This document shows, in pieces, positions 3,001-64,000 of a stretch of DNA of 64,000 bases (the first letter of the stretch is position 1; each line of letters begins with the position of its first letter). The notes under the pieces were generated by a model. It made no database searches. It was not told the origin of the DNA and was given only the letters and a program-made list of their open reading frames with translations. The stretch is from a virus: IMG/VR virus record IMGVR_UViG_3300025687_000001, positions 96,862 to 160,861 of that record, one strand, 5' to 3'. A program made the position numbers and the translations under genes.

Positions 3001-5116
3001 GATTAGCCTCGAGGAGGAGTTTGTAAGGGATACCGGGGGCGAATTCCCCCTGCGGTAACCCTGCCTCCTCCGAGAACTTCTTCAGCTCAGACCTAGCCCA
3101 TGGTGATTCGACTACGTCGTAGTGTCCGCGAAGCTTATCCGCCAGGGTGGTCTTACCAGCGGCCACGTCCCCCATGAGGAAGTTGATCTCGGAGGTCTTA
3201 GTCCGGAGAAGCTCCGCAAAAGGGGCTCCACCAACAGTTCGTACCGCGAAGGCAGGGTTGCCCTGAACATCCCTAGCGGGGCGAACTCGGTACTCCCCCA
3301 AAGGGGCCTCTAGCTCCCGTCTGAATAGAGGCACCTCATACGTAGGGTTCCTAGTGCTAACAACGCTAGTAGGGTCCGCCGTCCTGTTTGAGTCGCGGAC
3401 AAACCTTTCGTAATAGGGTCGATCCCATAAATCAGAGGCCTTGGTTACTGCGTGACTGTGCACCTCCGGGTAACTACCCGCCGCACCAGACCTGGAATAC
3501 GCAAACAACTTACCATCTACAGGTGCCCAGGATGGCTCCCCCACAATTCCAGTGGCATACCCCGCCGCTACGTCCGGGTGTCGAGTAGTGAAGACCAACT
3601 TACCGCCCTCTTCCGGCAGAGCATTGCCCCTGAAGAGCACGTCAGTAGGGCTGCTAGGGTTAGCTAAGATCTCAGCGGACCCTGTACTGGGCAGCAACAC
3701 CTCGTCCGCTGCCGGCAAGTGCTTCCCCTTAGCTCGCTCCCGAATAGAGTCAGTAGCTGCCGCTATGTCCCTACGCACTTGATAGGCAGGCTTGCTTCCA
3801 CTCCATGCATGCGCGCGATAAAGCTCTCTTGCGGCAGAGTCAGCTCTGGCACCTACCCGCCTGCGTTGCGCGTTACCCTCGATTAGCTCGTCTACAACAT
3901 CCCCGGCCCCCCGGCCCGGCTTACCGCTCTCTGGAACACCAAACCGCCTTTCTAGCGCGCCATACCAGTCCTTGCGCTCCTGCCTAGTAGTAGGGTTCAA
4001 CAAGTCCGCTATAGCGGCGTTGGACTTAGGCCCCACATCAGGCCCAGCCGCATGGAGGCGCTTGATCTCCTTAGTAATCCCCGGTCGGACCTCTTCTAAT
4101 AGAGCTAGTGCTTGTCTGGTGCTTGCTCGCGCAGCGTACTTGCTAATAGGAGCCGAGGAGCTCTTCTTAAACTCCCTCCACCTCTCCAACTCCTCCCTCA
4201 AACTCTCCGGCACCCCGCCCTCACGCCCAATACGCGCGTAGATCTCATCCAGGTCAGTAATGCTCGGCTCGCCCTCACGGTGAAGGCCGTACCTATTGAA
4301 CGTGTAGCCCTTCTCTTTAGCTAGGCGCTTGTCGTGGATGATGCCCTTGCCCCGAAGCCACTGAGCTAGCGCGGGCTCGAAGTGTTCCTCAGTGGTCTTG
4401 AAGACATCTACGCCAGGCTGCTTGGGCAGGTCAGTGACCCCCTCCTTAGGGACCACCAGGAGGTCAAGGTCTTTTGGGTCGGGGTGGCCCCTCCCGGTGG
4501 AGCCTACAGTAGCCTGGTAGCGAATTTGGTCTGCTAGGGACTCTGGGGCCGCACCACTCTGCTTAGGAAACAGCGAAGTATACCCAGACCTAAAAACCTC
4601 GGGCAGCGACCCCACGGTGGCCCCCGCCCCCGCCCCACCAAGAAGCGCGATCAGCTTGTGCTTGGGGAGCAGCTTTGTGAAGCCCTTGTTGGGGTGAGCT
4701 GCTTCCCAAATTGCGCCAGACAACGCCCCTGCTGCCGGCGCTACCCCTAGGGCTCGGTCCGTTAGCGTCGGCTCCTGCGATCCCGTGTTCCAGAACGCTT
4801 TCTTCTCCTCCTGCCCGCCAAACAGCGCCCGCACCGCCAAAGCTTCCTCGTCGCTGTACCCGCGCTCGGACCCCTTGTGAGCTCCGCCTACCCAGAGCCT
4901 GTCAGGGTAGAGATGAACCTGCCCCCGCTCAGTGTGCAGTCCGTAGTGCGGGCCGCGCTTGGACTCTCCGAAGTGCGCTCGAGGACCGAACTTGAGATGC
5001 ACCGGTTCGTACTTAGAGCCAGGGCTCCGCTTAGCCGCGCGCTTCTTCTTGAGGCGCTCGATTTCCGCTATGAACTGTAGGAGCTCGTTCTGAGTCGGGG
5101 TACCTTGGTCGTTCAC
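1..5116 (-). CDS. Giant multidomain (polyvalent) protein, >1700 aa, truncated at left edge; PolX-like, ART, P-loop stub, GNAT, LigD phosphoesterase, permuted papain-like, zincin and Gly-rich hydrophobic modules
   Basis: Hand translation from GTG at 5116 gives no stop down to position 1 in one frame. Motifs: GSTGRGHPDPKDLDLLV...AKEKGYTFNRYGL; VLFRG...FTTRHPDVAAGYA...YEV; GDVAAGKTT; IYVQPEHRGKGLA; HNANRAGKHWDLRL...SWAVP...GEIPEGTYGAG; LKPGDIVL...YTHA...VCT...LLPRD; LAHELGH. Confidence 0.9.
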   Translation of the reverse strand, partial: MNDQGTPTQNELLQFIAEIERLKKKRAAKRSPGSKYEPVHLKFGPRAHFGESKRGPHYGLHTERGQVHLYPDRLWVGGAHKGSERGYSDEEALAVRALFGGQEEKKAFWNTGSQEPTLTDRALGVAPAAGALSGAIWEAAHPNKGFTKLLPKHKLIALLGGAGAGATVGSLPEVFRSGYTSLFPKQSGAAPESLADQIRYQATVGSTGRGHPDPKDLDLLVVPKEGVTDLPKQPGVDVFKTTEEHFEPALAQWLRGKGIIHDKRLAKEKGYTFNRYGLHREGEPSITDLDEIYARIGREGGVPESLREELERWREFKKSSSAPISKYAARASTRQALALLEEVRPGITKEIKRLHAAGPDVGPKSNAAIADLLNPTTRQERKDWYGALERRFGVPESGKPGRGAGDVVDELIEGNAQRRRVGARADSAARELYRAHAWSGSKPAYQVRRDIAAATDSIRERAKGKHLPAADEVLLPSTGSAEILANPSSPTDVLFRGNALPEEGGKLVFTTRHPDVAAGYATGIVGEPSWAPVDGKLFAYSRSGAAGSYPEVHSHAVTKASDLWDRPYYERFVRDSNRTADPTSVVSTRNPTYEVPLFRRELEAPLGEYRVRPARDVQGNPAFAVRTVGGAPFAELLRTKTSEINFLMGDVAAGKTTLADKLRGHYDVVESPWARSELKKFSEEAGLPQGEFAPGIPYKLLLEANQEPYLRGYVRPRDKDRVRVPITVDGEIVGFHTPRQSRGSGMHRVGAIYVQPEHRGKGLAAQAIREHVAKHGDGIAFIETSNEPSRKAFLAAGFEEGDYEDRWGGGNWFRKKQSSEEFAPGIPASRQIHPIPEVQDANWRLTTQLHNANRAGKHWDLRLVDPETSRAHSWAVPRAQWPDEKRQKLLALLQPTHTADYAGWSGEIPEGTYGAGKVDAILDADTMVSSAPGKVEFDVPDQGKMRLLRTKDGKWLLTRVKTSAFWKSEKPTNLGQDFAAGLGPFGVWTSEYGARNQRAGISEGEHNLKQGVGIAGGLAGGGLLVPSMVTGLIEGFKGGAKGGWRGLGRGFLEGAAMPFRGVYHGRRATKLLDEAARAPKGYSRKLTRPEKDSLEFITGQTPVSTVMETGGNLGTPSASRKVREAIEAGDMSALTPLQQLDKGHLPPEVARAMQPAAQSGYNTFLAQLGIGAGIGGIGAGVQYSKGREGEKTGAALPWQQDEESHALRNSLMGVAAGVPAVTALTNRRAPLHTPGTSTHNFDYITANLKPGDIVLSGSDKGDPIRNLVAATQGSADYTHANVGWGPGKVLDIAPDRRHVMSDIGDAGINPERRVRILRHKDPAMASLTGEQDRAKFLQSMYGQHGDAPTYSVGKSVKSGLREILVPDPVAKLWGKLTNKQPKTPSQLGEEVRCAGGVCTVLPGGTMDPASKARQNKSLSSLLPRDIASDPSLETVLEYTPDPEEAKARAVRDLRAAGMSTEDAIAEVAKQQRSALRRDKLLRHAPNIARGAIGLGGAGAIYGLSKVNPEDVSVPEVAAGLGLGAAGAVPFLHKPLSMAAVNNYRKQINEYGDKRLRDIMAEGFSLDQAKAKVEADMQDFGRKIINDRGLVHVSPEGGFGVTADRNHPMNRGVESPTYDYSRRQAVQAHTPEFLAHELGHARDFENRARRSGALTLDDQIRAAIRTDMNAAPKRDTLKGALRVLRDETMANAYALQDLKKHRGLAE

Positions 5117-5168
5117 GGCTTATCAGCCCCACATTAAGACTAATTCAGTTATAAGATAATTGACCGAG

Positions 5169-5642
5169 ATGAACATCTTTGTATTGGACTCGGACCCCGC
5201 AAAAGCGGCTGAATTCCACTGTGATAACCACGTCGGAAAGATGCTGCTGGAGTCCGTGCAAATGCTCTCCACGGTGCGTCGACTCTACGGGTATACCGCG
5301 CCCTACAGAGCTACGCACCCAAACCACCCTGCGACTGTGTGGGTCAGGGAATCCAGAGCCAATTACGTTTGGCTGTATGACCTGGCTCGAGAACTAGACA
5401 TCCAGCACGTCGCACGCTTTGGCACACGGCACAGCTCCGGCAAAGCACTGAGCAAAGTGCTCCTGGTGCCCGCTGAGCTCCCGGACACTCCGCGTACAAA
5501 GTTCGCTCAGTGCATGCCGCCCAAGTACCAGCACGCTGACGCGGTCGTGGCCTACCGAAAGTTCTACGCTGGGGAGAAGGCGCACTTTGCTACCTGGCGC
5601 AACGAAGAGCCGTATTGGTGGCGAATTATGTGTCATAAGTGA
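5169..5642 (+). CDS. Pyrimidine-dimer DNA glycosylase / endonuclease V (DenV)-like protein
   Basis: N-terminal MNIFVLD...HCDNHVGKMLLESVQMLST, HPNHPATVWVRES, AYRKFYAGEK match this phage family. Confidence 0.8.
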   Translation: MNIFVLDSDPAKAAEFHCDNHVGKMLLESVQMLSTVRRLYGYTAPYRATHPNHPATVWVRESRANYVWLYDLARELDIQHVARFGTRHSSGKALSKVLLVPAELPDTPRTKFAQCMPPKYQHADAVVAYRKFYAGEKAHFATWRNEEPYWWRIMCHK

Positions 5643-5646
5643 ACAC

Positions 5647-5916
5647 ATGGAAGCAATGCCAGCGTTGTTGGCTCTCACTGCGCCGTCTCTGGCGCGCGGG
5701 CCCAACTACCGCCCTTCGCGGCTACACCAAGCCGCTGTAGAATACTACCTGGGGTGCATACCTACTCAGTACGCGCCCCAGCTTGTCAAAACCTGCCGTG
5801 CCTGGCTCCGCCGCCAGCTCACCTGGAGCCACGTTGTCGCTGCTTGGGCTGCTGCGTGGGAGAACTACTACCGAACTTCTCCGCCGCACCTCATTCGAGA
5901 AGTACGATGCCCATAG
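5647..5916 (+). CDS. Hypothetical protein
   Basis: ATG 7 nt after a GTCATAAG motif; overlaps the next gene. Confidence 0.5.
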   Translation: MEAMPALLALTAPSLARGPNYRPSRLHQAAVEYYLGCIPTQYAPQLVKTCRAWLRRQLTWSHVVAAWAAAWENYYRTSPPHLIREVRCP

Positions 5917-6203
5917 CGTACACCGGGTGCGAATGCGGCACTTGTACGCGCGTAAAGGTCTCCGGCAGCTCCCTAAGCATGAACCACGTGAGCTTTGTAA
6001 CCTTCGGGATCGGATCCAAGGGGCTGCCGACCTTATTTGGCATCTCCGCACTGAAGCCCGGGGCGAAATACGTCAAAGAAATGGCAGTGGCGTACAGTAG
6101 GCTGAAGAAGCGTAACTGGGCTCCGGAGAACATGGTCTGCTGGGACTGTGGTGCCCCTGTGGAACTGGTAGGAGATCTGGATGGCGGGGCTGCTAGCGCT
6201 TAG
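5907..6203 (+). CDS. Small putative Zn-binding protein
   Basis: CECGTC and CWDCG Cys pairs. Confidence 0.5.
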   Translation: MPIAYTGCECGTCTRVKVSGSSLSMNHVSFVTFGIGSKGLPTLFGISALKPGAKYVKEMAVAYSRLKKRNWAPENMVCWDCGAPVELVGDLDGGAASA

Positions 6204-6459
6204 CGCTTTCCTGGGTTTCCTGGCTGGTGCTGCTTGCGCTGCTTTCAGCCTGGTCAGGGTCTGGTCTCCACAACGCAATAAGTACTTGGAGCGCCGAGCA
6301 CGCCTCAAGGTCATCGAGGACCTGCGCTTCGAGGCTCGCGCCTACGACGCCAAAGCTCGCTCTGCGTGGCAGCCGTTTTACATGAACAAATATGCTGCGC
6401 GCGCAGAGCAACTACGTCAGCAAGCACAAGACCTAGCGTACAAGGAAGAGTCCCTTTAG
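6181..6459 (+). CDS. Small membrane-anchored protein
   Basis: Hydrophobic N-terminal helix followed by a charged helical tail. Confidence 0.55.
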   Translation: MAGLLALSAFLGFLAGAACAAFSLVRVWSPQRNKYLERRARLKVIEDLRFEARAYDAKARSAWQPFYMNKYAARAEQLRQQAQDLAYKEESL

Positions 6460-6476
6460 GACTCCTTCCTTTTAGC
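6443..6476 (+). terminator. Intrinsic terminator
   Basis: aggaagagtcc/ggactccttcct stem followed by tttag. Confidence 0.55.
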
Positions 6477-6489
6477 CTAGACTTAGGCT

Positions 6490-7002
6490 ATGCGATTTAC
6501 TCCGTACCTAGCTGCAATCGTTAGCGCGTGGCCCGGCCTGACTTTAGCTCAGGCTACAGCTGCTTCTGTCAACAAGGGCACCACGTTCACCCTGGAGCTG
6601 GTGCTTGCACTTGGTACTGCACTCCTAGCCGTGGGAGCCTTTGTCCAGAAGTCGAGGCAGATGGAAAAGTCGCTGGAAGAAGCCAGCAAAGAACGCAGGC
6701 TACTCTCCGACACAGCGACCAAGATCGAGAAGGACATCATTCAGATGGGCAACAGGGCCACAGAGCACGGCCTGGCCGAAGTCGCAACCAGTGTGGCTCA
6801 GGCGATGATCATGATGGGGGGAGTGGCGGAGCGGTTAGAACGGTCTCAGGAGGCCTTAGAGACCCGCCTGCGAGAATGCGAACGTAACGCCGACCAGACA
6901 ACTGCGGCATTCCGGGAATTGGCCAAAGCCGCGGGCAACGCCGATGAGATGTACCGGCAGCTCAACGCAATGGAGAGGCGTATCGACCGGTTGGAGAGGT
7001 AG
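6490..7002 (+). CDS. Membrane protein with cytoplasmic coiled coil, first gene of the two-component operon
   Basis: Signal-like N-terminus, TM helix LVLALGTALLAVGAFV, long heptad-rich C-terminus. Confidence 0.65.
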   Translation: MRFTPYLAAIVSAWPGLTLAQATAASVNKGTTFTLELVLALGTALLAVGAFVQKSRQMEKSLEEASKERRLLSDTATKIEKDIIQMGNRATEHGLAEVATSVAQAMIMMGGVAERLERSQEALETRLRECERNADQTTAAFRELAKAAGNADEMYRQLNAMERRIDRLER

Positions 7003-7004
7003 CA

Positions 7005-7358
7005 GTGTCCAGCGTAGAAATCCCGCTGGTGCTGGTTGTTGAGGATAACAACACCGACTACGATCTTCTGGTTGAGCAGCTAGTTACTGAGTACCTGCTT
7101 GTTCGAGCCAAGGATGGCTCTGCCGCTATTGAGATGCTCCTCGGCGGGGCAACCTACTACGCCGCTATCATTGACCTATTGCTTCCGGGGACCAAGACGG
7201 GGGCTGATGTGTCCCTAGTCGCAGCGGACCTCGGGGTGCCTGTACTCATGCTCACTACCACACCAGCGCTAGCGCAAATGTCAGGTTCACTGGGCAGTAT
7301 CATGGAAAAGGGGGCTGCGCCGGAGGCGGTCCTTACTTGGTTACGGAGTCTGACGTGA
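7005..7358 (+). CDS. Single-domain response regulator (receiver)
   Basis: LVVEDN acidic pocket, IIDLLLP phospho-Asp, MLTT, EK. Confidence 0.85.
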   Translation: MSSVEIPLVLVVEDNNTDYDLLVEQLVTEYLLVRAKDGSAAIEMLLGGATYYAAIIDLLLPGTKTGADVSLVAADLGVPVLMLTTTPALAQMSGSLGSIMEKGAAPEAVLTWLRSLT

Positions 7359-7744
7359 GAGTGCTTCTGATCGAGGACTGCCCAGACGATGAGGTCAGGT
7401 CCCTAGCAGCTTTGCAGGCGACAGAGATGCCCCTGAACGTAACGGTGGCGCATAACAGCGGTGATGCGAAGAAGTCCCTGGAGGAGTCCGGTCCCTGGGA
7501 CATAGTCCTTGTGGACTTTCGACTGCCTGGGAGCATCGACGGGGTGACGCTGGCCGAGCTGGCTATGGAGTTGTACCCCGACGCACGGGTCGCGATGTTG
7601 ACCGGACTCCCCGAAGCAGCGTCTCGTGCGTTAAAAGACAACCGTATCCTGGTGTTTGGTAAGGACATCTTCTTGCGTGGGCACGTCGCAGCGCTGGTCC
7701 ACGACGCTTCTATCCAGCCGGGCACGTTGTACGCGGTAGGCTGA
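7355..7744 (+). CDS. Single-domain response regulator (receiver)
   Basis: LLIEDCPDD, LVDFRLPG..DG, MLTG, GK; GTGA overlap with the previous gene. Confidence 0.85.
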   Translation: MRVLLIEDCPDDEVRSLAALQATEMPLNVTVAHNSGDAKKSLEESGPWDIVLVDFRLPGSIDGVTLAELAMELYPDARVAMLTGLPEAASRALKDNRILVFGKDIFLRGHVAALVHDASIQPGTLYAVG

Positions 7745-9027
7745 TGTTTCGGTTAACTGTTGACGCGAAGGGGGTTATTGTCGAGGCGGATGCAGCCGCC
7801 TCGCGTCTCCTCGAGAGAGAGCTTGTCGGCGTCTCTGTAGACGTCCTGGCCGGAGGAGACCACGCCCGTCTACGAAAAGCTGTTGCCCCGGACGAGGCCC
7901 GGCCAATGGCGCGGACGCTAAAGCTCGGTCAACGGTATGTGGACGTCGCGTTTGGTGCTGCCGACGTAAGCAGCAGCCGCCACGTTTGGGTCGCAGACCG
8001 AACAACAGAGACCACCGTGTTGCGGCTTTTAGAGCTTGGCTTGGATCTGGCCTGTACCGCAACAGACGGCTTACATTTTGATTACCTTTCTCCGTCCTGG
8101 GAAAAAACACTAGGCTGGTCGCTGGAAGAACTTCGAGCGCGGCCGTTTGTAGAGTTCGTACACCCGGAAGACGTCCCAGCCACAGCGGCGGTGGCCGAAG
8201 AGATGCTCGCTAGTCAAGGTGTGGTGCAGCTGTTCCGCAACCGCTACCGGCACAAGAGCGGTTCCTGGGTCTGGCTGGAGTGGATGGCGCGGGTCGCGGA
8301 CAACATGTTTTGGGCGAGTGCTCGCGACGTGACTCGTTTGGTCGAGGTCGAAGCTCGACAGACACGCACCTTACGAGAGATGGAGCAGTTCAGTTACGCC
8401 GCCGCCCATGATCTGAAGGCGCCGTTACGCCGCATTACCAGTCTCGCCAGGAGCGCCGTGATGGCGCTGGAAGCCGGTGATAACGAGAAGCTGGTCAAGC
8501 GGCTGGAGCAGATCGCTGCCGCCGGAGAAGACGGGTCCTCGGTCGTCGAGGCAGCGTTGGAGTACGCATGCCTCGGGGGCGAAGTCACGACTGCCCCGGC
8601 GGATGTGGAGGATGCCATAGGCGCAGCTCTGAGGCGATCGGGTGTCCTTCACGGCGGTGCCCCCCTTTCCGCTAAAGGTCCCGAGGGGGTCACTGTGCGG
8701 TACCACAAGGAGGGGCTCGTCGCGGCTATCACTAATCTGCTCGACAACGCGAAGAAGTACGGTGACGGTTCTGCCATCTCCATCACGTGGGACAATAGTG
8801 CGCACGGCGGTGCGTGGATTGCCGTGGCAGACCAAGGCCGCGGTTTCGACCCCGAGTGGGCAGAGCGGGTGTGGGAGCCGGCGTGGAGAGGGCATAGTGA
8901 CGTGGCAGGACACGGCTTCGGACTGGCCAAAGTACGAAAGCTGATTGAATCAATGGGCGGCGCCGTGCGGGCGTCGTCCCCCGGTCCGGGCAAGGGGGCC
9001 GTCTTTGTGATCGAGTTGGAGCTATGA
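7744..9027 (+). CDS. Cytoplasmic PAS-domain sensor histidine kinase
   Basis: PAS/PAC (SPSWEKTLGWS...FVHPED...NRYRHKSGSWVWLEW), H-box FSYAAAHDLKAPL, N-box NLLDNAKKY, G1 DQGRGFD, G2 GHGFGL. Confidence 0.93.
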   Translation: MFRLTVDAKGVIVEADAAASRLLERELVGVSVDVLAGGDHARLRKAVAPDEARPMARTLKLGQRYVDVAFGAADVSSSRHVWVADRTTETTVLRLLELGLDLACTATDGLHFDYLSPSWEKTLGWSLEELRARPFVEFVHPEDVPATAAVAEEMLASQGVVQLFRNRYRHKSGSWVWLEWMARVADNMFWASARDVTRLVEVEARQTRTLREMEQFSYAAAHDLKAPLRRITSLARSAVMALEAGDNEKLVKRLEQIAAAGEDGSSVVEAALEYACLGGEVTTAPADVEDAIGAALRRSGVLHGGAPLSAKGPEGVTVRYHKEGLVAAITNLLDNAKKYGDGSAISITWDNSAHGGAWIAVADQGRGFDPEWAERVWEPAWRGHSDVAGHGFGLAKVRKLIESMGGAVRASSPGPGKGAVFVIELEL

Positions 9028-9028
9028 A

Positions 9029-9466
9029 ATGGGTGGGTACGCAGAGCCGCTGCATGTAGTCGTCTGCGACGACGACGACGTGGATGCTGAGCTAATAGTA
9101 GAAGCGTTGGAACGTGAAAGTGTCGCGGACAGCTATACTCATGTAGACAGCGGTCCAGCACTACTTGCTTACTTGCGAGACCCGAAGACTCCGAGACCTT
9201 GCCTCATCCTGCTCGACCTCTCCATGCCGGGTATGAACGGTCACGACACCCTAAGGGCCGTACGCGGTGACCGCAGCATTCGCGACATCGTAGTCTGCGT
9301 TTACTCGACGTCAGGCGAGCTACGAGATGTGCGCGAGGCACACGAGATCGGCGTCCAAGGCTATCTCAAGAAACCAGGCACAGCACCGAACGAGACGGAG
9401 CGGGTGGTGCGCGGCATCATGGCGCACTTAGAGTACTTCATCCTGCCGCACCCTCCGAGGGTGTAG
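9029..9466 (+). CDS. Single-domain response regulator, Rcp1-like
   Basis: VVCDDDDVD, PCLILLDLSMPGMNG, VYSTS, GYLKKP. Confidence 0.9.
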   Translation: MGGYAEPLHVVVCDDDDVDAELIVEALERESVADSYTHVDSGPALLAYLRDPKTPRPCLILLDLSMPGMNGHDTLRAVRGDRSIRDIVVCVYSTSGELRDVREAHEIGVQGYLKKPGTAPNETERVVRGIMAHLEYFILPHPPRV

Positions 9467-9538
9467 TCGGACCCCCACTACCCCCCTACGCCCGCAAAAC
9501 CCTATACTTGCTGCACCAGACCATAGTGGGCGGTCAGT

Positions 9539-9847
9539 ATGCAGCGATTGTGGATGATTGCACAGGCAGATAACGGGTTTACCTGCTCTGACGTAACTGG
9601 GTCAACTAGAACGGTGCACGCCGGGGAACCCGCTGAGGCCTTGGCTGATTTGCTGTTTGAGCACTTTGAGAGCCTGTTCCGAACCAAGCACCGAGGCGGC
9701 CTGGTTATTCGCGTAGCGGGGCGTCGTACATCGGAAGATGACATCCTGGCAGCCGCCTACGAGGTAATCGACGCCCTGCCTCCGGAACTAAGAAGCCCTG
9801 TAGCTCGGGCGCTCAACCTGCTGCAGGGAGTAGACAGCGATGCGTGA
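9539..9847 (+). CDS. Hypothetical protein
   Basis: ORF coupled to the next gene. Confidence 0.55.
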   Translation: MQRLWMIAQADNGFTCSDVTGSTRTVHAGEPAEALADLLFEHFESLFRTKHRGGLVIRVAGRRTSEDDILAAAYEVIDALPPELRSPVARALNLLQGVDSDA

Positions 9848-11120
9848 AGACTTAGTAGCGACTGCTCGCGAGCTGTACGCACGCTACCAAAGCAGCCGAG
9901 AAGTAGCGCGCCGTATGGGCGTGCACAGGTCCACGGTCTCTCGTTGGTTAGCCGGAACGCAGGCCCCCACAGGTCCCACACAGACCGCAGATTCCTCGCA
10001 GCGCAAAGAGCTAAAAGACAGCATCGAAAACGGCGTACGCACTATTGAGTCCAACGATGTAGCTACGCTCGAGGACCTCTTGGCGGAGGCTAAGGTCGAC
10101 CTGGATGAGTGGTTGGTGGTCAAATACAACGTCGGCTACCACGTCGTAACCATCAAGGCCAAGCAGGCTGACGGTACACACAAACTCATCAAATCTAGGA
10201 ACCCTAAAATCAACGCGGTCCTAGAGCGCCGTCCCTCCTTCTTTGCCCCTGTTGTACGACCTGTAACACCACTAAAGCGCCGTGCAGTCCCGACCACTCC
10301 TGACGGAGTGGCACTAATTCTCCCGGACTCCCAGCACGGTTTTCGCCGCAAACCTGGCGGAGAGTTGGACCCTCTGCACGATGTACGCGCGTGCGACGTA
10401 GCCCTGCAGACCGCGGAGTTGCTTCAGCCGGATGAAATCGTGCTCTTGGGTGACATGTTGGATCTAGCCCCGTGGAGTTCGTACGCGCAGGAGCCCGAGC
10501 TCAAGTACACTACGCAACCCGCTATCGAGGCTCTCGCTGCCTGGCTGGGCGGCTTGAGGAAAGCGTGCCCCTCTGCGAAAATCACGTACCTCGAGGGCAA
10601 CCATGAGCACCGAATCATTAAGAAACTCAACGACGTACATGACGAAGCCTCTACTCTCCGCGGACCTGACTCAGACCTGCCTCTTCTTTCCATCCCCTAT
10701 TTACTATCTCTCAGCTCCTTGGATATCGACTATGTCGGACCGTACGGAGCTAGCTACTGGCTCTGGGGGGTTAGAATTCATCACGGCAATGTGGTCCGTG
10801 CACGCGGTGGGGACACCGCGGGGGCAATGTTAGCTCGAGCTACACACAGCCAGATCGTAGGGCACATCCATCGCCGTGAGGTGGCCTCCCGACGCATACG
10901 CACCGAGCACGGGCCGCAGACTGTTACAGCCCTAAGCCCTGGTTGCTTATGCCGGGTGGACGGCGCAGTGCCCCACAAGCAGGGGGCGGAGGTAGACTGG
11001 CAGCAGGGAATGGCGCTGGTCTACAGGCACGAAACTCGTGCTCAGTCTGTGCAACTCGTACCTATCAACGACGGCGTCGCGTACGTCCATGGGCACAAAA
11101 TTGAATCCAAAAACGATTAG
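9840..11120 (+). CDS. N-terminal HTH + calcineurin-like metallophosphoesterase
   Basis: HTH SSREVARRMGVHRSTVSRWL; motifs PDSQH, GDMLD, EGNHE, HHG, GHIH. Confidence 0.88.
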   Translation: MREDLVATARELYARYQSSREVARRMGVHRSTVSRWLAGTQAPTGPTQTADSSQRKELKDSIENGVRTIESNDVATLEDLLAEAKVDLDEWLVVKYNVGYHVVTIKAKQADGTHKLIKSRNPKINAVLERRPSFFAPVVRPVTPLKRRAVPTTPDGVALILPDSQHGFRRKPGGELDPLHDVRACDVALQTAELLQPDEIVLLGDMLDLAPWSSYAQEPELKYTTQPAIEALAAWLGGLRKACPSAKITYLEGNHEHRIIKKLNDVHDEASTLRGPDSDLPLLSIPYLLSLSSLDIDYVGPYGASYWLWGVRIHHGNVVRARGGDTAGAMLARATHSQIVGHIHRREVASRRIRTEHGPQTVTALSPGCLCRVDGAVPHKQGAEVDWQQGMALVYRHETRAQSVQLVPINDGVAYVHGHKIESKND

Positions 11121-11496
11121 CACTGTCCTCGGAGCGGTCACGGCTCTCTTTTTAGCCTGGTCTCAGCTAAAAGAAGTGCAAGTGCGCGCACAGAAGACGG
11201 CGATAGAAGTTGCAGGCGCTGCTCGCGCTGAAGCGCTAGCCACAGCTGCCCCCGTCACAAACGCGTGCGCTCGGGAGGTAGAAGCTCTTCGTGCCGAGTT
11301 TGACCTGGAGCGGCAGCTTCACATTAAGACCCGCATAGAGGTGCGTCGATTGCAGAGCTCTGCTCTGGTACGCCGGGACTCTCTGGAATGGGACGCTAGA
11401 GAGCTTCGCGAGGCGCGCGGCGAAGTATTCACCGGCCCCGAAGTTGACCTGGACTCACTGAAGCCTCCCGAGCGGGTCCTCCTGCCTAAGCTTTAA
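11089..11496 (+). CDS. Membrane-anchored coiled-coil protein
   Basis: TM ISTVLGAVTALFLAW followed by a helical charged region. Confidence 0.55.
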   Translation: MGTKLNPKTISTVLGAVTALFLAWSQLKEVQVRAQKTAIEVAGAARAEALATAAPVTNACAREVEALRAEFDLERQLHIKTRIEVRRLQSSALVRRDSLEWDARELREARGEVFTGPEVDLDSLKPPERVLLPKL

Positions 11497-11515
11497 TCTG
11501 GTATAAGCGGTTAGC

Positions 11516-11866
11516 ATGGAACCATGTAACTGCACCACTCGTCGTGTGGACCGACGCAGCACCTGCTCCAACGCAGTTGCGCTAAACCTGACCTACGGCG
11601 AATTCAATCTTTTCGGCGCCTGGCCTGAAGACACTGATGAGCAGCCTCTAGCTGGAAGCCTGACCGGCACCATGAGCCGTATTACACCGGCCAACCCCGA
11701 CTACGTTTTCATAGCGCGCGCAATGCTGCACGCCATCCTACGCAAGGGCTGGGTAGAGCGTATCAGCCCTTGCAAGGTTCGCATCACCGAGTCTGGCAAA
11801 GCTCTTCGCGAGCAAATCCGCTCTACGCCACACTGGCAAAAGACCGAGCCTAGACGAGAAGAGTAG
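11516..11866 (+). CDS. Hypothetical protein, possible winged-helix
   Basis: Preceded by GGTATAAG; LRKGWV...VRITESGK resembles a wHTH wing. Confidence 0.5.
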   Translation: MEPCNCTTRRVDRRSTCSNAVALNLTYGEFNLFGAWPEDTDEQPLAGSLTGTMSRITPANPDYVFIARAMLHAILRKGWVERISPCKVRITESGKALREQIRSTPHWQKTEPRREE

Positions 11867-11961
11867 TGGAGCTGACCCTGACAGACCCTGCCACCTTGTT
11901 CTTGGTGGTGGTTTGTTCCGGGTTGCTTGCTCGCGCGATCAGCAGCTATCTTGGCTGGTAG
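11866..11961 (+). CDS. 31-aa hydrophobic peptide
   Basis: MELTLTDPATLFLVVVCSGLLARAISSYLGW; start overlaps the previous stop. Confidence 0.35.
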   Translation: MELTLTDPATLFLVVVCSGLLARAISSYLGW

Positions 11962-11964
11962 AGT

Positions 11965-12014
11965 GCTGGGGGCTAGTTTGCCAGCTACGGGTACAACCCA
12001 AACTAGCCCCCAGC
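11965..12014. repeat. Perfect 16-bp inverted repeat
   Basis: gctgggggctagtttg / caaactagcccccagc with an 18-nt loop and no U-tract. Confidence 0.85.
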
Positions 12015-12115
12015 CGCTGGGAACTCGGACCGCGGAGGGACTAGGCGGGGGTGGGGCGACGCAGCGAGATACCCGTTAGCCCGCGACCTCCTACTATTTA
12101 GCTCAGGAGAATTAG

Positions 12116-12400
12116 GTGGCCCAGGACAGTCATCTAGGCATGTCTTCTTTCGAGAAACGCGAAGCACTAGGCATTGTTGTGCTGTTTGCTCTGCTGATGT
12201 CGTTGACCTGTAGCGTAATCACCTGCGGAACACCCAACAACACGGTCACTAAGTGCAGGGAGTGTAGTGTCGCTGCAGACTGCTACTACGGCGAAAAGTG
12301 CGGCTGCCCCATCGTAAGCGTAGGCGGCCGAAACCAGCGCCACTGCGGCGTGTGCGAGCCTAGCCTCTCCTCCGCTGAGAGCTACACCTGCGAGCTCTAG
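12116..12400 (+). CDS. Membrane-anchored Cys-rich protein
   Basis: RBS caggag; TM helix then ECSVAADCYYGEKC...CGVC. Confidence 0.6.
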   Translation: MAQDSHLGMSSFEKREALGIVVLFALLMSLTCSVITCGTPNNTVTKCRECSVAADCYYGEKCGCPIVSVGGRNQRHCGVCEPSLSSAESYTCEL

Positions 12401-62147: not shown

Positions 62148-64000
62148 TTAAGCCAGAACGACGGCCTCGCCAGGCTGGATGAAGACAGCGTCTGCGCCGA
62201 TGGCGTACCCAACCTTCAGAACAACGTCCCCCGCGTCCGAGGGAGCGGTCTGGGTCAGTTCACCTGCGGTGAGGCTGAGGAAGACCTCGCCACCCGCGGT
62301 GAACGCCCCGCCGCCCGAGGGGCCACTGACCTTGCCTGCCACCGCGACGCGGATGTCGTCAGCGGTGTTCTCCGCGGAGGAGTCGAGAGCGAAGCCCACG
62401 AACTTGGAGCTGGCTTCCGCGTCCGCGTCACACAGGTTGACGGTACCCGAGCTATCGATGTAGAGGGCATCACCCACCGCGATGGCTGCGTGCGTCGCCG
62501 GGGTGCTGAAGCGCACACAGACGGGAGCGTCAACCGCGCCGGTGGCCCCAACCGTCAGGGCACCGGAACCGAGGAGGTTGAAGTCCGGGTTGGTGGCGGC
62601 GTTACCAAGAACCACGGCCGCACCGGTGTTGCTGGTATCCACCAGGAAGTAGTTGTTAGTCGACTCCGCGACCTTGAAGGCCTGGCCGGAGTCGTCAACT
62701 ACCGCCATGGAGAACGCACCGCCAGAGGTCAGGGCGATGGAATCCGCGTCCAAGGTGTGCGCACCAACGTTGACGTCAAACGCGCCTGTAGTAGTGATGT
62801 CCACCTCGCCAGCGTTGCCAACCAAGTTGACCCCGCCCGCACCGTCCAGGCTAAGAGCCCCGGCTACGGTCGACCAGGTGGCCGCAGCCGCCGAGGTCAG
62901 CGTCAGCGCTCCCGCGGACGTGGTCAGGCTCGAAGCCGCGTTAGCGGTCAGGGTGGCAGCGCCCCCCGAGAGGGTGAGATCGCCACCGCTGACGTCCAGC
63001 CCGGCGTCAGCGTCCAGGTTGGCGCTGGCAGTGATGACGCTGGCCCCGGAGCCCACGACCATCTCCGCCTCGTGCCCCAACCAGACAATGGAGGTGGACG
63101 AGTCCGCACCAGCGTTGTCCGTGCCGTGGAAGTAGAGGAACGCGTCGAGGTCAACGGCGGAATCGGCTGTGAGGCCGATCTGCATGCTGGCCGAGATGGC
63201 GGTGCCATCATCGTCCATGCCGAACTCGATGACGGGAGCCCCGGTGTCGCCCGCGACGTTGTACATGCTGGCCGAGAAGACCGAGTTGGTCTCCCCAACA
63301 GCGTCGCCCGACTTCAGAACGATGCCCGCGTCCTCCTCCGTGCCCTGCGCGGAGTCGTTGTTGACCGTGAACACCAGAGCGTTGGTGCTGGGAACGCTGA
63401 TCTCGCCAGCGTTGAGCGCCCCATCCTTGGTGATCTGGACGAGCCCAGCGTCGCTGTGGAAGAAGAGCTCCTCGTCCGAGCCATCGACGGCAACGTAAAT
63501 CCGACCGTCGCCATCCGCGGGAGCCCCGGGAGCAGCAATGGCGTCGAAATCCATGTAACCCGAGGACTTCACGTTATCCGAGCTGAGGGTACCAGTGGTG
63601 CTCAGGTTCTCGTTGCCGAAGTCAATCGCGCCACTGGAGTCAGTGATGCTCCCGTTCGCCAGGGTCAGGTTGCCGACCGAAGAACCAGAGGCCAGGGTGG
63701 CGACGCCGGCGCCCAGAGTACCAGTGGTGCTCAGGTTCTCGTCGCCGAAGTCAATCGCGCCACTGGAGTCAGTGATGCTCCCGTTCGCCAGGGTCAGGTT
63801 GCCGACCGAAGAACCAGAGGCCAGGGTGGCGACGCCGGCGCCCAGAGTACCAGTGGTGCTCAGGTTCTCGTCGCCGAAGTCAATCGCGCCACTGGAGTCA
63901 GTGATGCTCCCGTTCGCCAGGGTCAGGTTGCCGACCGAAGAACCAGAGGCCAGGGTGGCGACGCCGGCGCCCAGAGTACCAGTGGTGCTCAGGTTCTCGT
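62148..64000 (-). CDS. Fibre/decoration-like structural protein, truncated at right edge
   Basis: Frame stays open from 63572 to the window end; G/A/T/S-rich beta repeats; C-terminal AIAVGDALYI...VGFAL...G.VFLS..AGELT..AP...VGYAI capsid-cement/fibre-like domain. Confidence 0.75.
   Translation of the reverse strand, partial: ENLSTTGTLGAGVATLASGSSVGNLTLANGSITDSSGAIDFGDENLSTTGTLGAGVATLASGSSVGNLTLANGSITDSSGAIDFGDENLSTTGTLGAGVATLASGSSVGNLTLANGSITDSSGAIDFGNENLSTTGTLSSDNVKSSGYMDFDAIAAPGAPADGDGRIYVAVDGSDEELFFHSDAGLVQITKDGALNAGEISVPSTNALVFTVNNDSAQGTEEDAGIVLKSGDAVGETNSVFSASMYNVAGDTGAPVIEFGMDDDGTAISASMQIGLTADSAVDLDAFLYFHGTDNAGADSSTSIVWLGHEAEMVVGSGASVITASANLDADAGLDVSGGDLTLSGGAATLTANAASSLTTSAGALTLTSAAAATWSTVAGALSLDGAGGVNLVGNAGEVDITTTGAFDVNVGAHTLDADSIALTSGGAFSMAVVDDSGQAFKVAESTNNYFLVDTSNTGAAVVLGNAATNPDFNLLGSGALTVGATGAVDAPVCVRFSTPATHAAIAVGDALYIDSSGTVNLCDADAEASSKFVGFALDSSAENTADDIRVAVAGKVSGPSGGGAFTAGGEVFLSLTAGELTQTAPSDAGDVVLKVGYAIGADAVFIQPGEAVVLA
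63589..64000 (-). repeat. 129-bp (43-aa) near-identical tandem repeats, at least 3.2 copies
   Basis: ctcaggttct recurs at 63601, 63730, 63859 and 63988; unit DENLSTTGTLGAGVATLASGSSVGNLTLANGSITDSSGAIDFG. Confidence 0.95.

Follow-up and report, generated by a model that had tools for sequence, protein, structure and literature searches.

The subject of this analysis is a cassette of five genes at positions 6490-9466, on the plus strand, in the final 64 kb of a single 160,861-bp phage contig (IMG/VR record IMGVR_UViG_3300025687_000001); this 64,000-nucleotide stretch is the window to which all coordinates refer unless they are marked as genome coordinates. The cassette codes for a membrane-anchored coiled-coil protein, a soluble sensor histidine kinase, and three stand-alone receiver (REC) domains. 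We propose, with moderate confidence, that it specifies a branched phosphotransfer circuit run by the phage itself, which would respond to a cytoplasmic cue and deliver its output through protein contacts. Kinases and receivers of this general kind already sit unremarked in the databases; what is new here is the presence of three receivers and of a conserved five-gene unit.

The first gene of the cassette, cc170 (6490-7002), encodes the membrane/coiled-coil protein of 170 amino acids (aa). It is followed by the genes for REC1, a divergent stand-alone receiver of 117 aa (7005-7358); REC2, a stand-alone receiver of 129 aa (7355-7744, with a GTG start at 7355, or 135 aa from an alternative TTG at 7337); a soluble PAS-HisKA-HATPase kinase of 427 aa (7744-9027); and REC3, a stand-alone receiver of 145 aa that resembles Rcp1 and RcpB (9029-9466). 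The junctions between these open reading frames (ORFs) are tight throughout: the GTG of REC1 lies 2 nt past the stop of cc170 and has the ribosome-binding site GGAGAGG, REC1 and REC2 overlap in GTGA, the stop of REC2 and the start of the kinase share 1 nt (TGATG), and REC3 starts 1 nt beyond the kinase stop, with GGAG upstream. Judged by this layout, the five genes form a translationally coupled operon. An earlier note on this DNA, made from the letters and their translations, had claimed five coupled ORFs here, and the coordinates are exactly as it gave them. Searches of the phage genome found no Response_reg matches outside the cassette, no second HATPase_c match, and no Hpt domain; the cassette is a closed set of one kinase and three receivers.

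The kinase matches the Pfam models PAS_3 (1.5e-14) and HATPase_c (1.8e-17), while its match to HisKA (8.8e-4, 19.7 bits) falls below the cut-off; its best match in the PDB by phmmer is to the DHp and CA domains of an EnvZ chimera (7.7e-17). In the predicted model, a PAS domain occupies residues 102-195 (the PAS_3 region spans about 100-197), the DHp domain residues 197-275 (helices 197-241 and 248-275), and the ATP-binding domain residues 284-426. The features of a class I (HisKA) kinase are present, namely, an H-box on the DHp hairpin along with the N, G1, and G2 boxes, and the key positions are invariant among the aligned relatives: H222 in the H-box AAHDLKAPL (phospho-acceptor codon at 8407-8409), N331/N335, D363-x-G365-x-G367, and G391-x-G393-L394. 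As far as the sequence can tell, the claim that the PAS-HisKA-HATPase kinase is complete holds, with all its catalytic motifs intact. Hydropathy analysis found no transmembrane-like or hydrophobic segment in the kinase, and because it combines PAS domains with the lack of such a segment, we may fairly infer that it reads a cytoplasmic cue. HisKA kinases use a Thr or Asn at H+4 for phosphatase activity. The H-box of the phage kinase presumably offers neither residue at that position, and if this point holds, the circuit would depend on autodephosphorylation of the receivers or on a sink.

Of the three receivers, REC3 passes the cut-off of the Pfam Response_reg model (1e-15); REC2 narrowly misses it (29.5 bits versus a cut-off of 30.2 bits), and REC1, with 18.2 bits, also lies below it. 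Despite these scores, REC1 and REC2 are real receivers. In the case of REC1, this is because of its predicted fold and structural matches: the AlphaFold model (pLDDT 94) has the (beta-alpha)5 fold, and the Foldseek matches listed for it from the PDB are all receiver domains (best 2rdm, TM-score 0.87). Sequence searches of the PDB with phmmer likewise aligned its residues 5-113 with the receiver domains of solved regulators (E 0.005-0.009). In the case of REC2, it is because of its matches in a library of 1.8 billion representative proteins, 1533 of which were recovered at E<=1e-3, essentially all via receiver domains; its best PDB match is 3luf (4e-5), and among NCBIfam models it comes closest to CpdR (1e-9), though far short of the cut-off. 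For REC3, the best sequence matches in the PDB are the phytochrome-partner receivers 4zyl (RphyB, 5e-15), 1k66 (RcpB, 2e-13), 1k68 (RcpA), and 1i3c (Rcp1, 2e-11), along with 5ic5, 6xvu, and 8avv, and the label “Rcp1-like” given to it earlier is apt as a statement of resemblance.

In an alignment of 15 receivers, comprising the three from the phage, their orthologues, and library matches, the acidic Asp, the phospho-Asp, and the Lys never vary, and strand 4 ends in Thr or Ser in every row. The corresponding residues are E13-D14, D57 (phospho-Asp), T84, and K102 in REC1; E7-D8, D54, T83, and K103 in REC2, where K-D replaces the usual K-P; and D14-D15, D63, S93/T94, Y112, and K115-P116 in REC3. 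All three are single-domain proteins with no output domain. Taken with the REC1 model and the REC2 library matches, the alignment bears out the earlier description of three output-less receivers that keep the phospho-Asp, the T/S, and the Lys. The receivers are only 20-25% identical among themselves, as against 38-53% between each of them and its own orthologue (see below), and since their mutual identity is so far below that to their orthologues, their sequences mark them as old specialized paralogues or separate recruits and not as redundant copies. Helix alpha-1 is the usual kinase-docking helix of receivers. As read from the alignment, it is alike in REC1 (D-Y-D-L-L-V-E-Q-L) and REC3 (D-A-E-L-I-V-E-A-L), which hints that these two might dock on the same kinase.

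A second copy of the cassette was recovered through the relatives of REC3, which reach 54-58% identity. One of these is carried by a 9.5-kb contig of 67% GC (L060), on which a PAS kinase of 518 aa, 46% identical to the phage kinase and with one extra PAS domain, lies directly upstream of the REC3 orthologue and is itself preceded by a truncated REC2-like gene. The best stand-alone match of REC2 (P0131, 38%) lies on another contig (L065); the two contigs are 100% identical in an overlap of 962 bp, and L065 supplies the upstream portion of what is a single element of 67-68% GC. In this element, orthologues of cc170 (L065:1845-2351; 168 aa, with the same signal-like/transmembrane/coiled-coil layout, 29% identity over 150 aa, E 1e-12), REC1 (L065:2348-2698; 116 aa, 38%, E 1e-21), and REC2 (P0131, L065:2679-3038; 119 aa, 38-41%) precede the kinase and the REC3 orthologue (L060:1853-2290; 145 aa, 53%). 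The second element consequently has the same five genes (168, 116, 119, 518, and 145 aa) in the same order at 29-53% protein identity, and no further genes common to it and the phage were found. Because all five genes and every catalytic residue are retained at this divergence, the sequences are best explained if the five-gene unit, cc170 included, has been kept by selection as a whole. Apart from the second element, no evidence connects cc170 with the signaling genes. It looks viral, short of proof: nine consecutive genes matched no Pfam family, no PHROG, and none of 50,697 phage records, and the single viral hint is one weak Phage_cement_2 flag. A partial gene at the start of L065 was considered as a candidate lysin and dropped, Pfam and PDB sequence searches with it being empty.

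Two-component genes are typical of cells, and the best named relatives of the kinase come from metagenome-assembled genomes of Actinomycetota (27-35% identity), which would favor the view that the cassette is an artefact or a passenger, that is, a host fragment misjoined to phage DNA or a host operon that was captured recently and does nothing for the phage. We regard this as extremely unlikely. The identical kinase recurs in JGI, ENA, and Logan assemblies of several samples, on at least 16 contigs in all, the same phage context having been assembled independently each time; samples containing the phage include JGI 3300007541, 3300007542, and 3300025647, ENA ERZ27275027, and SRR6191717. Five fetched pieces of 7.8-13.3 kb match the window at 99.98-100% identity, not only in the cassette but also in the flanks on either side. 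In GC content, GC content at third codon positions, and codon usage, the cassette agrees with the remainder of the phage genome (codon correlation 0.936, against 0.951 +/- 0.022 for random gene sets). The flanks consist of phage genes, as had been noted, namely, those for a 2222-aa polyvalent protein, a phrog_624 protein, and a helix-turn-helix (HTH)-metallophosphoesterase of phrog_20266, and no repeats or mobile-element ends were found flanking the cassette. A near-identical host locus was looked for, and the best cellular kinase is 35% identical: short partial segments aside, the best match over most of the length among 185,579 species genomes has 33% identity and that among the 241 million records of the JGI metagenomes 31%. 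A further relative, at 33%, lies on a 194.6-kb uncultured contig (L006), and neither the single protein nor a two-sequence profile recovered kinase relatives in IMG/VR. The retention of the unit at 29-53% identity in the second element speaks against a passenger as well. Given the shared assembly context, the phage-like codon usage, and the lack of any cellular kinase more than 35% identical in the genomes and metagenomes searched, the cassette is neither a chimera nor a recent host pick-up, and the earlier attribution to the phage stands. The phage itself is uncultured, aquatic, genuine, and complete, on account of its structural genes (including those for a head maturation protease and a baseplate wedge protein), its genes for a helicase and for split multisubunit RNA polymerase subunits, its 11 tRNA genes, its terminal repeats (IMG/VR class: direct terminal repeats), and a CheckV completeness of 100%. 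The whole contig has a GC content of 58.5%.

Taking these findings together, we envisage a circuit in which a cytoplasmic cue would be sensed by the soluble kinase through its PAS module, whereupon the kinase would autophosphorylate on H222 and pass the phosphoryl group to D57 of REC1, D54 of REC2, and D63 of REC3. Because the receivers have no output domains, the output would be expected to run via phosphorylation-dependent protein contacts. The best candidate partner is the co-conserved, membrane-anchored cc170, the coiled coil of which is predicted to be cytoplasmic; going by sequence, the chances that it is the direct target in such a circuit seem to us about evenly balanced. Alternatively, at least one of the receivers might time the response by serving as a phosphate sink or buffer. 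Such a circuit would probably serve to adjust the infection program to the physiological state of the host.

The prediction for cc170 comes from its hydrophobic segments. By hydropathy and reading of the sequence, the protein begins with a signal-peptide-like stretch (residues 1-22, ending ..LAQA), followed by a strongly hydrophobic, transmembrane-like helix at about residues 30-55, then by K/R, and then by a helical, coiled-coil-like C-terminal part of about 115 aa. Because two hydrophobic segments precede the K/R, the coiled coil is expected on the cytoplasmic side, together with the receivers; this prediction is the same for a cleaved and for a membrane-spanning first segment. Family matches of cc170 are weak: the spanin-like phrog_739 matches at E 1e-4, with no stretch passing, and a JetC/MukB-like model at 1.7e-3. 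A word search found no homologues beyond cc170 itself, and its look-alikes by protein language model are small phage membrane proteins of the DUF2746 and DUF2730 families, whose scores of 0.85-0.87, all below 0.9, are at the level of leads only. A prediction of the complex between REC1 and residues 54-170 of cc170 scored 0.00 relative to a mark of 0.32, a value that counts neither for nor against binding.

Several points weigh against the proposed circuit. At the input end, the first ~87-95 residues of the kinase are poorly modelled; because their counterpart in the kinase on contig L006, by alignment, is a genuine first PAS domain, they are probably a shortened PAS domain or PAS remnant of ~95 residues. 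At the output end, cc170 is only 29% identical to its second-element orthologue and has no detectable family, and what appears to link it to the receivers is gene order alone. Besides that of the phage, only one copy of the cassette was found, on a putatively viral element with no PHROG or phage-database match. The helix alpha-1 of REC2 is unlike that of REC1 and REC3, and some phage-like contigs encode REC2-like receivers but have no kinase gene in the vicinity; REC2 may, on these sequence grounds, be fed by another donor, for instance a host kinase. Finally, in one of five assemblies (L007, JGI 3300007542, a contig of 148,137 bp), the loss of 1 bp from a T run at position 9302 of the window turns GCGTTTAC into GCGTTAC and frameshifts REC3 after residue 91, thereby removing its T/S and Lys. 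This is either a homopolymer or assembly error or a natural REC3-null variant, the latter being a sign that REC3 is dispensable.

The earlier note had suggested that the phage might act on the timing of lysis through the membrane protein, in which case the phosphorylated receivers would act on cc170 as a holin-, antiholin-, or spanin-like factor and so advance or delay lysis. That cc170 is membrane anchored, leads the operon, and marginally matches the Rz-like spanins of phrog_739 (E 1e-4) can be read this way, as can the small phage membrane proteins among its lead-level look-alikes. We nevertheless consider such a role improbable. The sole endolysin-type gene found in the phage, an Amidase_2 gene (genome 85301-86092), lies 17 kb away on the minus strand; the genome yielded no match to Phage_lysozyme or Peptidase_M15_4 and, elsewhere, one weak, sub-cut-off match to SLT; and the lysin-like-looking gene upstream of the second cassette copy matched nothing. 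Further, the cassette lies among genes that look early or middle and not late, and the coiled coil of cc170 is predicted to be cytoplasmic, as opposed to periplasmic in an i-spanin, with no lipoprotein partner embedded in or adjacent to the gene. What survives of the earlier interpretation is the phage ownership and intactness of the system and, as a fair inference, the cytoplasmic cue, whereas lysis timing via the membrane protein finds no support. We also tried cc170 specifically as an Rz-type i-spanin and rejected it in view of the marginal match, the two hydrophobic segments followed by K/R, the lack of an embedded or adjacent lipoprotein ORF, and the distance of 17 kb to the endolysin.

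A different target is conceivable for the same proteins: the phage kinase might phosphorylate host regulators, and/or the receivers might drain or block host kinases as sinks or decoys, reprogramming, for example, c-di-GMP, cell cycle, or envelope pathways. Such a takeover of host signaling differs from the circuit proposed above in its target and does not exclude it. The bacterial-type operon nearest to the kinase/REC3 pair (L064:606-5256, Logan ERR14790953, 67% GC) encodes a PAS kinase, a REC3-like receiver (42% identity), and a REC-PAS-GGDEF-EAL protein, which points to c-di-GMP signaling and suggests that in cells this type of kinase and receiver feeds c-di-GMP turnover. The orphan REC2-like receivers of phage-like contigs suggest feeding by host kinases, and the best named model of REC2, though far below its cut-off, is CpdR, a protease-adaptor receiver. 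There is also a published precedent in PIT4 of Pseudomonas phage LSL4, an early phage protein that interferes with host two-component systems (PMC10714779). Against this, no cellular kinase found exceeds 35% identity to that of the phage, which leaves no close cellular model for docking on host partners, a plain sink would need neither a sensing PAS kinase nor a conserved membrane protein, and no host partner can be named. On balance, we view host takeover as a rather unlikely primary function.

The branched circuit that we favor has several parallels among cellular systems. In the Cph1-Rcp1 and bacteriophytochrome pairs (1i3c, 1jlk, 1k66, 1k68, 4zyl, 8avv), as in the phage, a HisKA-class kinase is followed by a stand-alone receiver of ~145 aa, and the bacteriophytochrome kinases 8sgk and 8avv are among the PDB matches of the phage kinase. 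In contrast to Cph1-Rcp1, the phage kinase has PAS_3 as its only input and lacks GAF and PHY domains; it is accompanied by a membrane protein and by two further receivers; and the system is viral. Because no Pfam match to GAF or PHY was found in the kinase, REC3 resembles Rcp1 but belongs to no phytochrome system. Pairs from Thermotoga maritima, ThkA/TrrA and HK853/RR468 (3a0r, 3dge, 2c2a), combine a soluble PAS-linked or minimal class I kinase with a receiver-only regulator, and their structures turn up in the PDB sequence searches with REC1, REC2, and the kinase; these pairs, however, are cellular and one-to-one, and the similarity is only at the level of the general family. Circuits in which one kinase serves several receivers are familiar from bacteria, as in CheA with the CheY1/CheY2 phosphate sink, DivJ/PleC with DivK, and CpdR as a ClpXP adaptor. 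The shared logic is that of output-less receivers that act by protein contact or as a sink or buffer for one kinase; the phage proteins, by contrast, score far below the cut-offs of these families, and the phage has no CheA, CheW, or Hpt.

The one-kinase/several-receiver layout of the phage is also formally similar to that of Detocs, a defense system comprising DtcA, DtcB, and DtcC, whose stand-alone receiver DtcB has been proposed to buffer phosphate signals (bioRxiv 10.1101/2023.01.24.525353). This similarity raises the question of counter-defense, in which the receivers would soak up the phosphoryl groups of a host two-component-type defense such as Detocs, or else of the cassette itself being a defense or exclusion system. 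Both seem to us very doubtful: none of the seven proteins scanned, the kinase and receivers among them, matches a PADLOC model at E<=0.01, coiled-coil noise aside; no receiver has an effector domain, unlike in Detocs; and no other defense or anti-defense gene was identified in the operon.

Among viruses, the divergent receiver cREC of jumbo phages is, according to Iyer et al. 2021 (PMC7824862), never found with histidine kinases and is linked to NAD+/ADP-ribose (ADPr)-processing genes, whereas the receivers of the present phage are translationally coupled to a histidine kinase. Microcoleus phage My-WqHQDG (OR578706) encodes a 545-aa kinase-like protein followed by a 138-aa receiver, a pair that goes unmentioned in the preprint describing this phage. 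Closer in architecture is the 194,594-bp contig L006 (JGI 3300073100, Ga0615130_000002), probably a huge phage, which encodes a 160-aa coiled-coil protein with a C-terminal transmembrane segment, a 143-aa REC3-type receiver, and a 625-aa PAS-PAS kinase. As in the phage cassette, a small membrane-anchored helical protein lies ahead of a receiver and a kinase; the two membrane proteins, however, show no detectable homology (hhalign probability 1.4%), and their anchors lie at opposite ends. The cassette differs from these other phage kinase/receiver cassettes in having three receivers as opposed to one or two, and the identity between the kinases is only 28-33%. The kinase/receiver families PHROG 857, 5982, 10912, and 731 are nearly all labelled as having unknown function. 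Only 16 of the 50,697 phage records contain a match to the phage kinase, many of them bacterial or fragmentary, so that, for deposited phage records, the statement that such kinases are uncommon in phages is supported. No published description of phage cassettes with a membrane protein, a receiver, and a kinase was found in the literature searched.

Phages are known to listen to host or phage signals via single receptors, such as arbitrium or VqmA-type quorum receptors. Going beyond these, we tentatively raise the possibility of a virus-autonomous sensory organ, in which the phage's own PAS kinase would read the host cytoplasm and the three specialized receivers would serve, respectively, as a gate for the membrane protein, a coupler to a host machine, and a timer or sink. 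If this less than probable scenario were true, it would be the first decision circuit of a phage to consist wholly of two-component parts; along with the analogous cassettes of large phages, it would make phosphorelay signaling a recurrent and so far undescribed layer of the control of phage development. In the literature searched, no account of a complete, phage-owned, and conserved kinase-to-receiver circuit was found. More generally, if the cassette works as proposed, large aquatic phages would sense the physiology of the infected cell and respond post-translationally, with consequences for the way in which the outcome of infection depends on the environment. With one kinase and three receivers of 117-145 aa, all small and soluble, the cassette would also be a compact natural example of branched signaling, and the size and solubility of its parts make phosphotransfer profiling straightforward.

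Two further observations concern the relatives just described. REC2-like receivers of 36% identity are encoded on contigs in the assemblies ERZ24794644 and ERZ24794645 of ENA (P0192 and P0146), in both cases directly preceded by a small unannotated gene (180 aa or 99 aa). The 27-kb contig of P0192 also carries genes for a DNA methylase, a thymidylate synthase, and a Peptidase_M15_4 lysin. Orphan receivers may be more widely distributed among phages. The contig L006, for its part, also encodes release-factor-like (RF-1, PCRF), Rho_N, WGR, CinA, and InPase/DUF5661 proteins among many unannotated small genes.

In its genomic neighborhood, the cassette adjoins the start of the opposite-strand gene for the polyvalent protein, and a long rightward run of small genes begins with it; the gene block that it opens looks early or middle rather than late. 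Just ahead of cc170 (6448-6489, plus strand), consensus scanning and reading of the sequence revealed a terminator-like hairpin (6448-6464) with a T-rich tail, followed by a palindrome of 16 nt, AGCCTAGACTTAGGCT, which runs up to the cc170 ATG. The hairpin or the palindrome could be an attenuator or translational control element before the cassette. The preceding ORF, tm92 (6181-6459, plus strand), codes for 92 aa with, by hydropathy, an N-terminal transmembrane helix and a charged helical tail. It is probably outside the core cassette because it is not conserved in the second element, where the gene at the same position (on L065) is unlike it. Between the divergent starts of the polyvalent-protein and phrog_624 genes lies a 43-bp spacer (5117-5159) that is strikingly AT rich (it contains TTATAAGATAATTGAC) and, in a 59% GC genome, is likely a divergent promoter region. 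A consensus scan found no sigma-70-type promoter in 4900-12200, and k-mer enrichment upstream of genes yielded weak AT-rich hexamers only.

Downstream of the cassette, the gene at 9840-11120 codes for an HTH domain fused to a metallophosphoesterase (phrog_20266, 2.9e-51). It has 39 viral relatives in IMG/VR, at 25-46% identity, none of which (0/39) shares the cassette or any other neighboring gene with it, and it looks like a mobile single-gene module among aquatic phages. A synteny search with the phrog_624 protein returned five loci, all unrelated, and one with the polyvalent protein returned none.

As to the phage genome at large, a search for a tyrosine integrase, the sole test bearing on a lytic lifestyle, found none. 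The nearest relatives of the polymerase are those of Vibrio phage D181 (33%) and Salmonella phage Arash (30%). Both ends of the contig (G000:C1:1-400 and 160475-160861, the latter corresponding to 63614-64000 of the window) lie within an array of 129-bp tandem repeats in a coding region, and the first 200 bases of the contig are found again 386 bases ahead of its end; the “direct terminal repeat” call may stem from the repeat array or from a circular assembly and not from true physical ends. The tRNA genes (Leu x2, Val, Ala, Met x2, Gln, Arg, Asn, Lys, and Thr) form a cluster just upstream of the window, at genome 91.4-94.5 kb (L005:11438-14531), and the set serves mostly A/U-ending codons.

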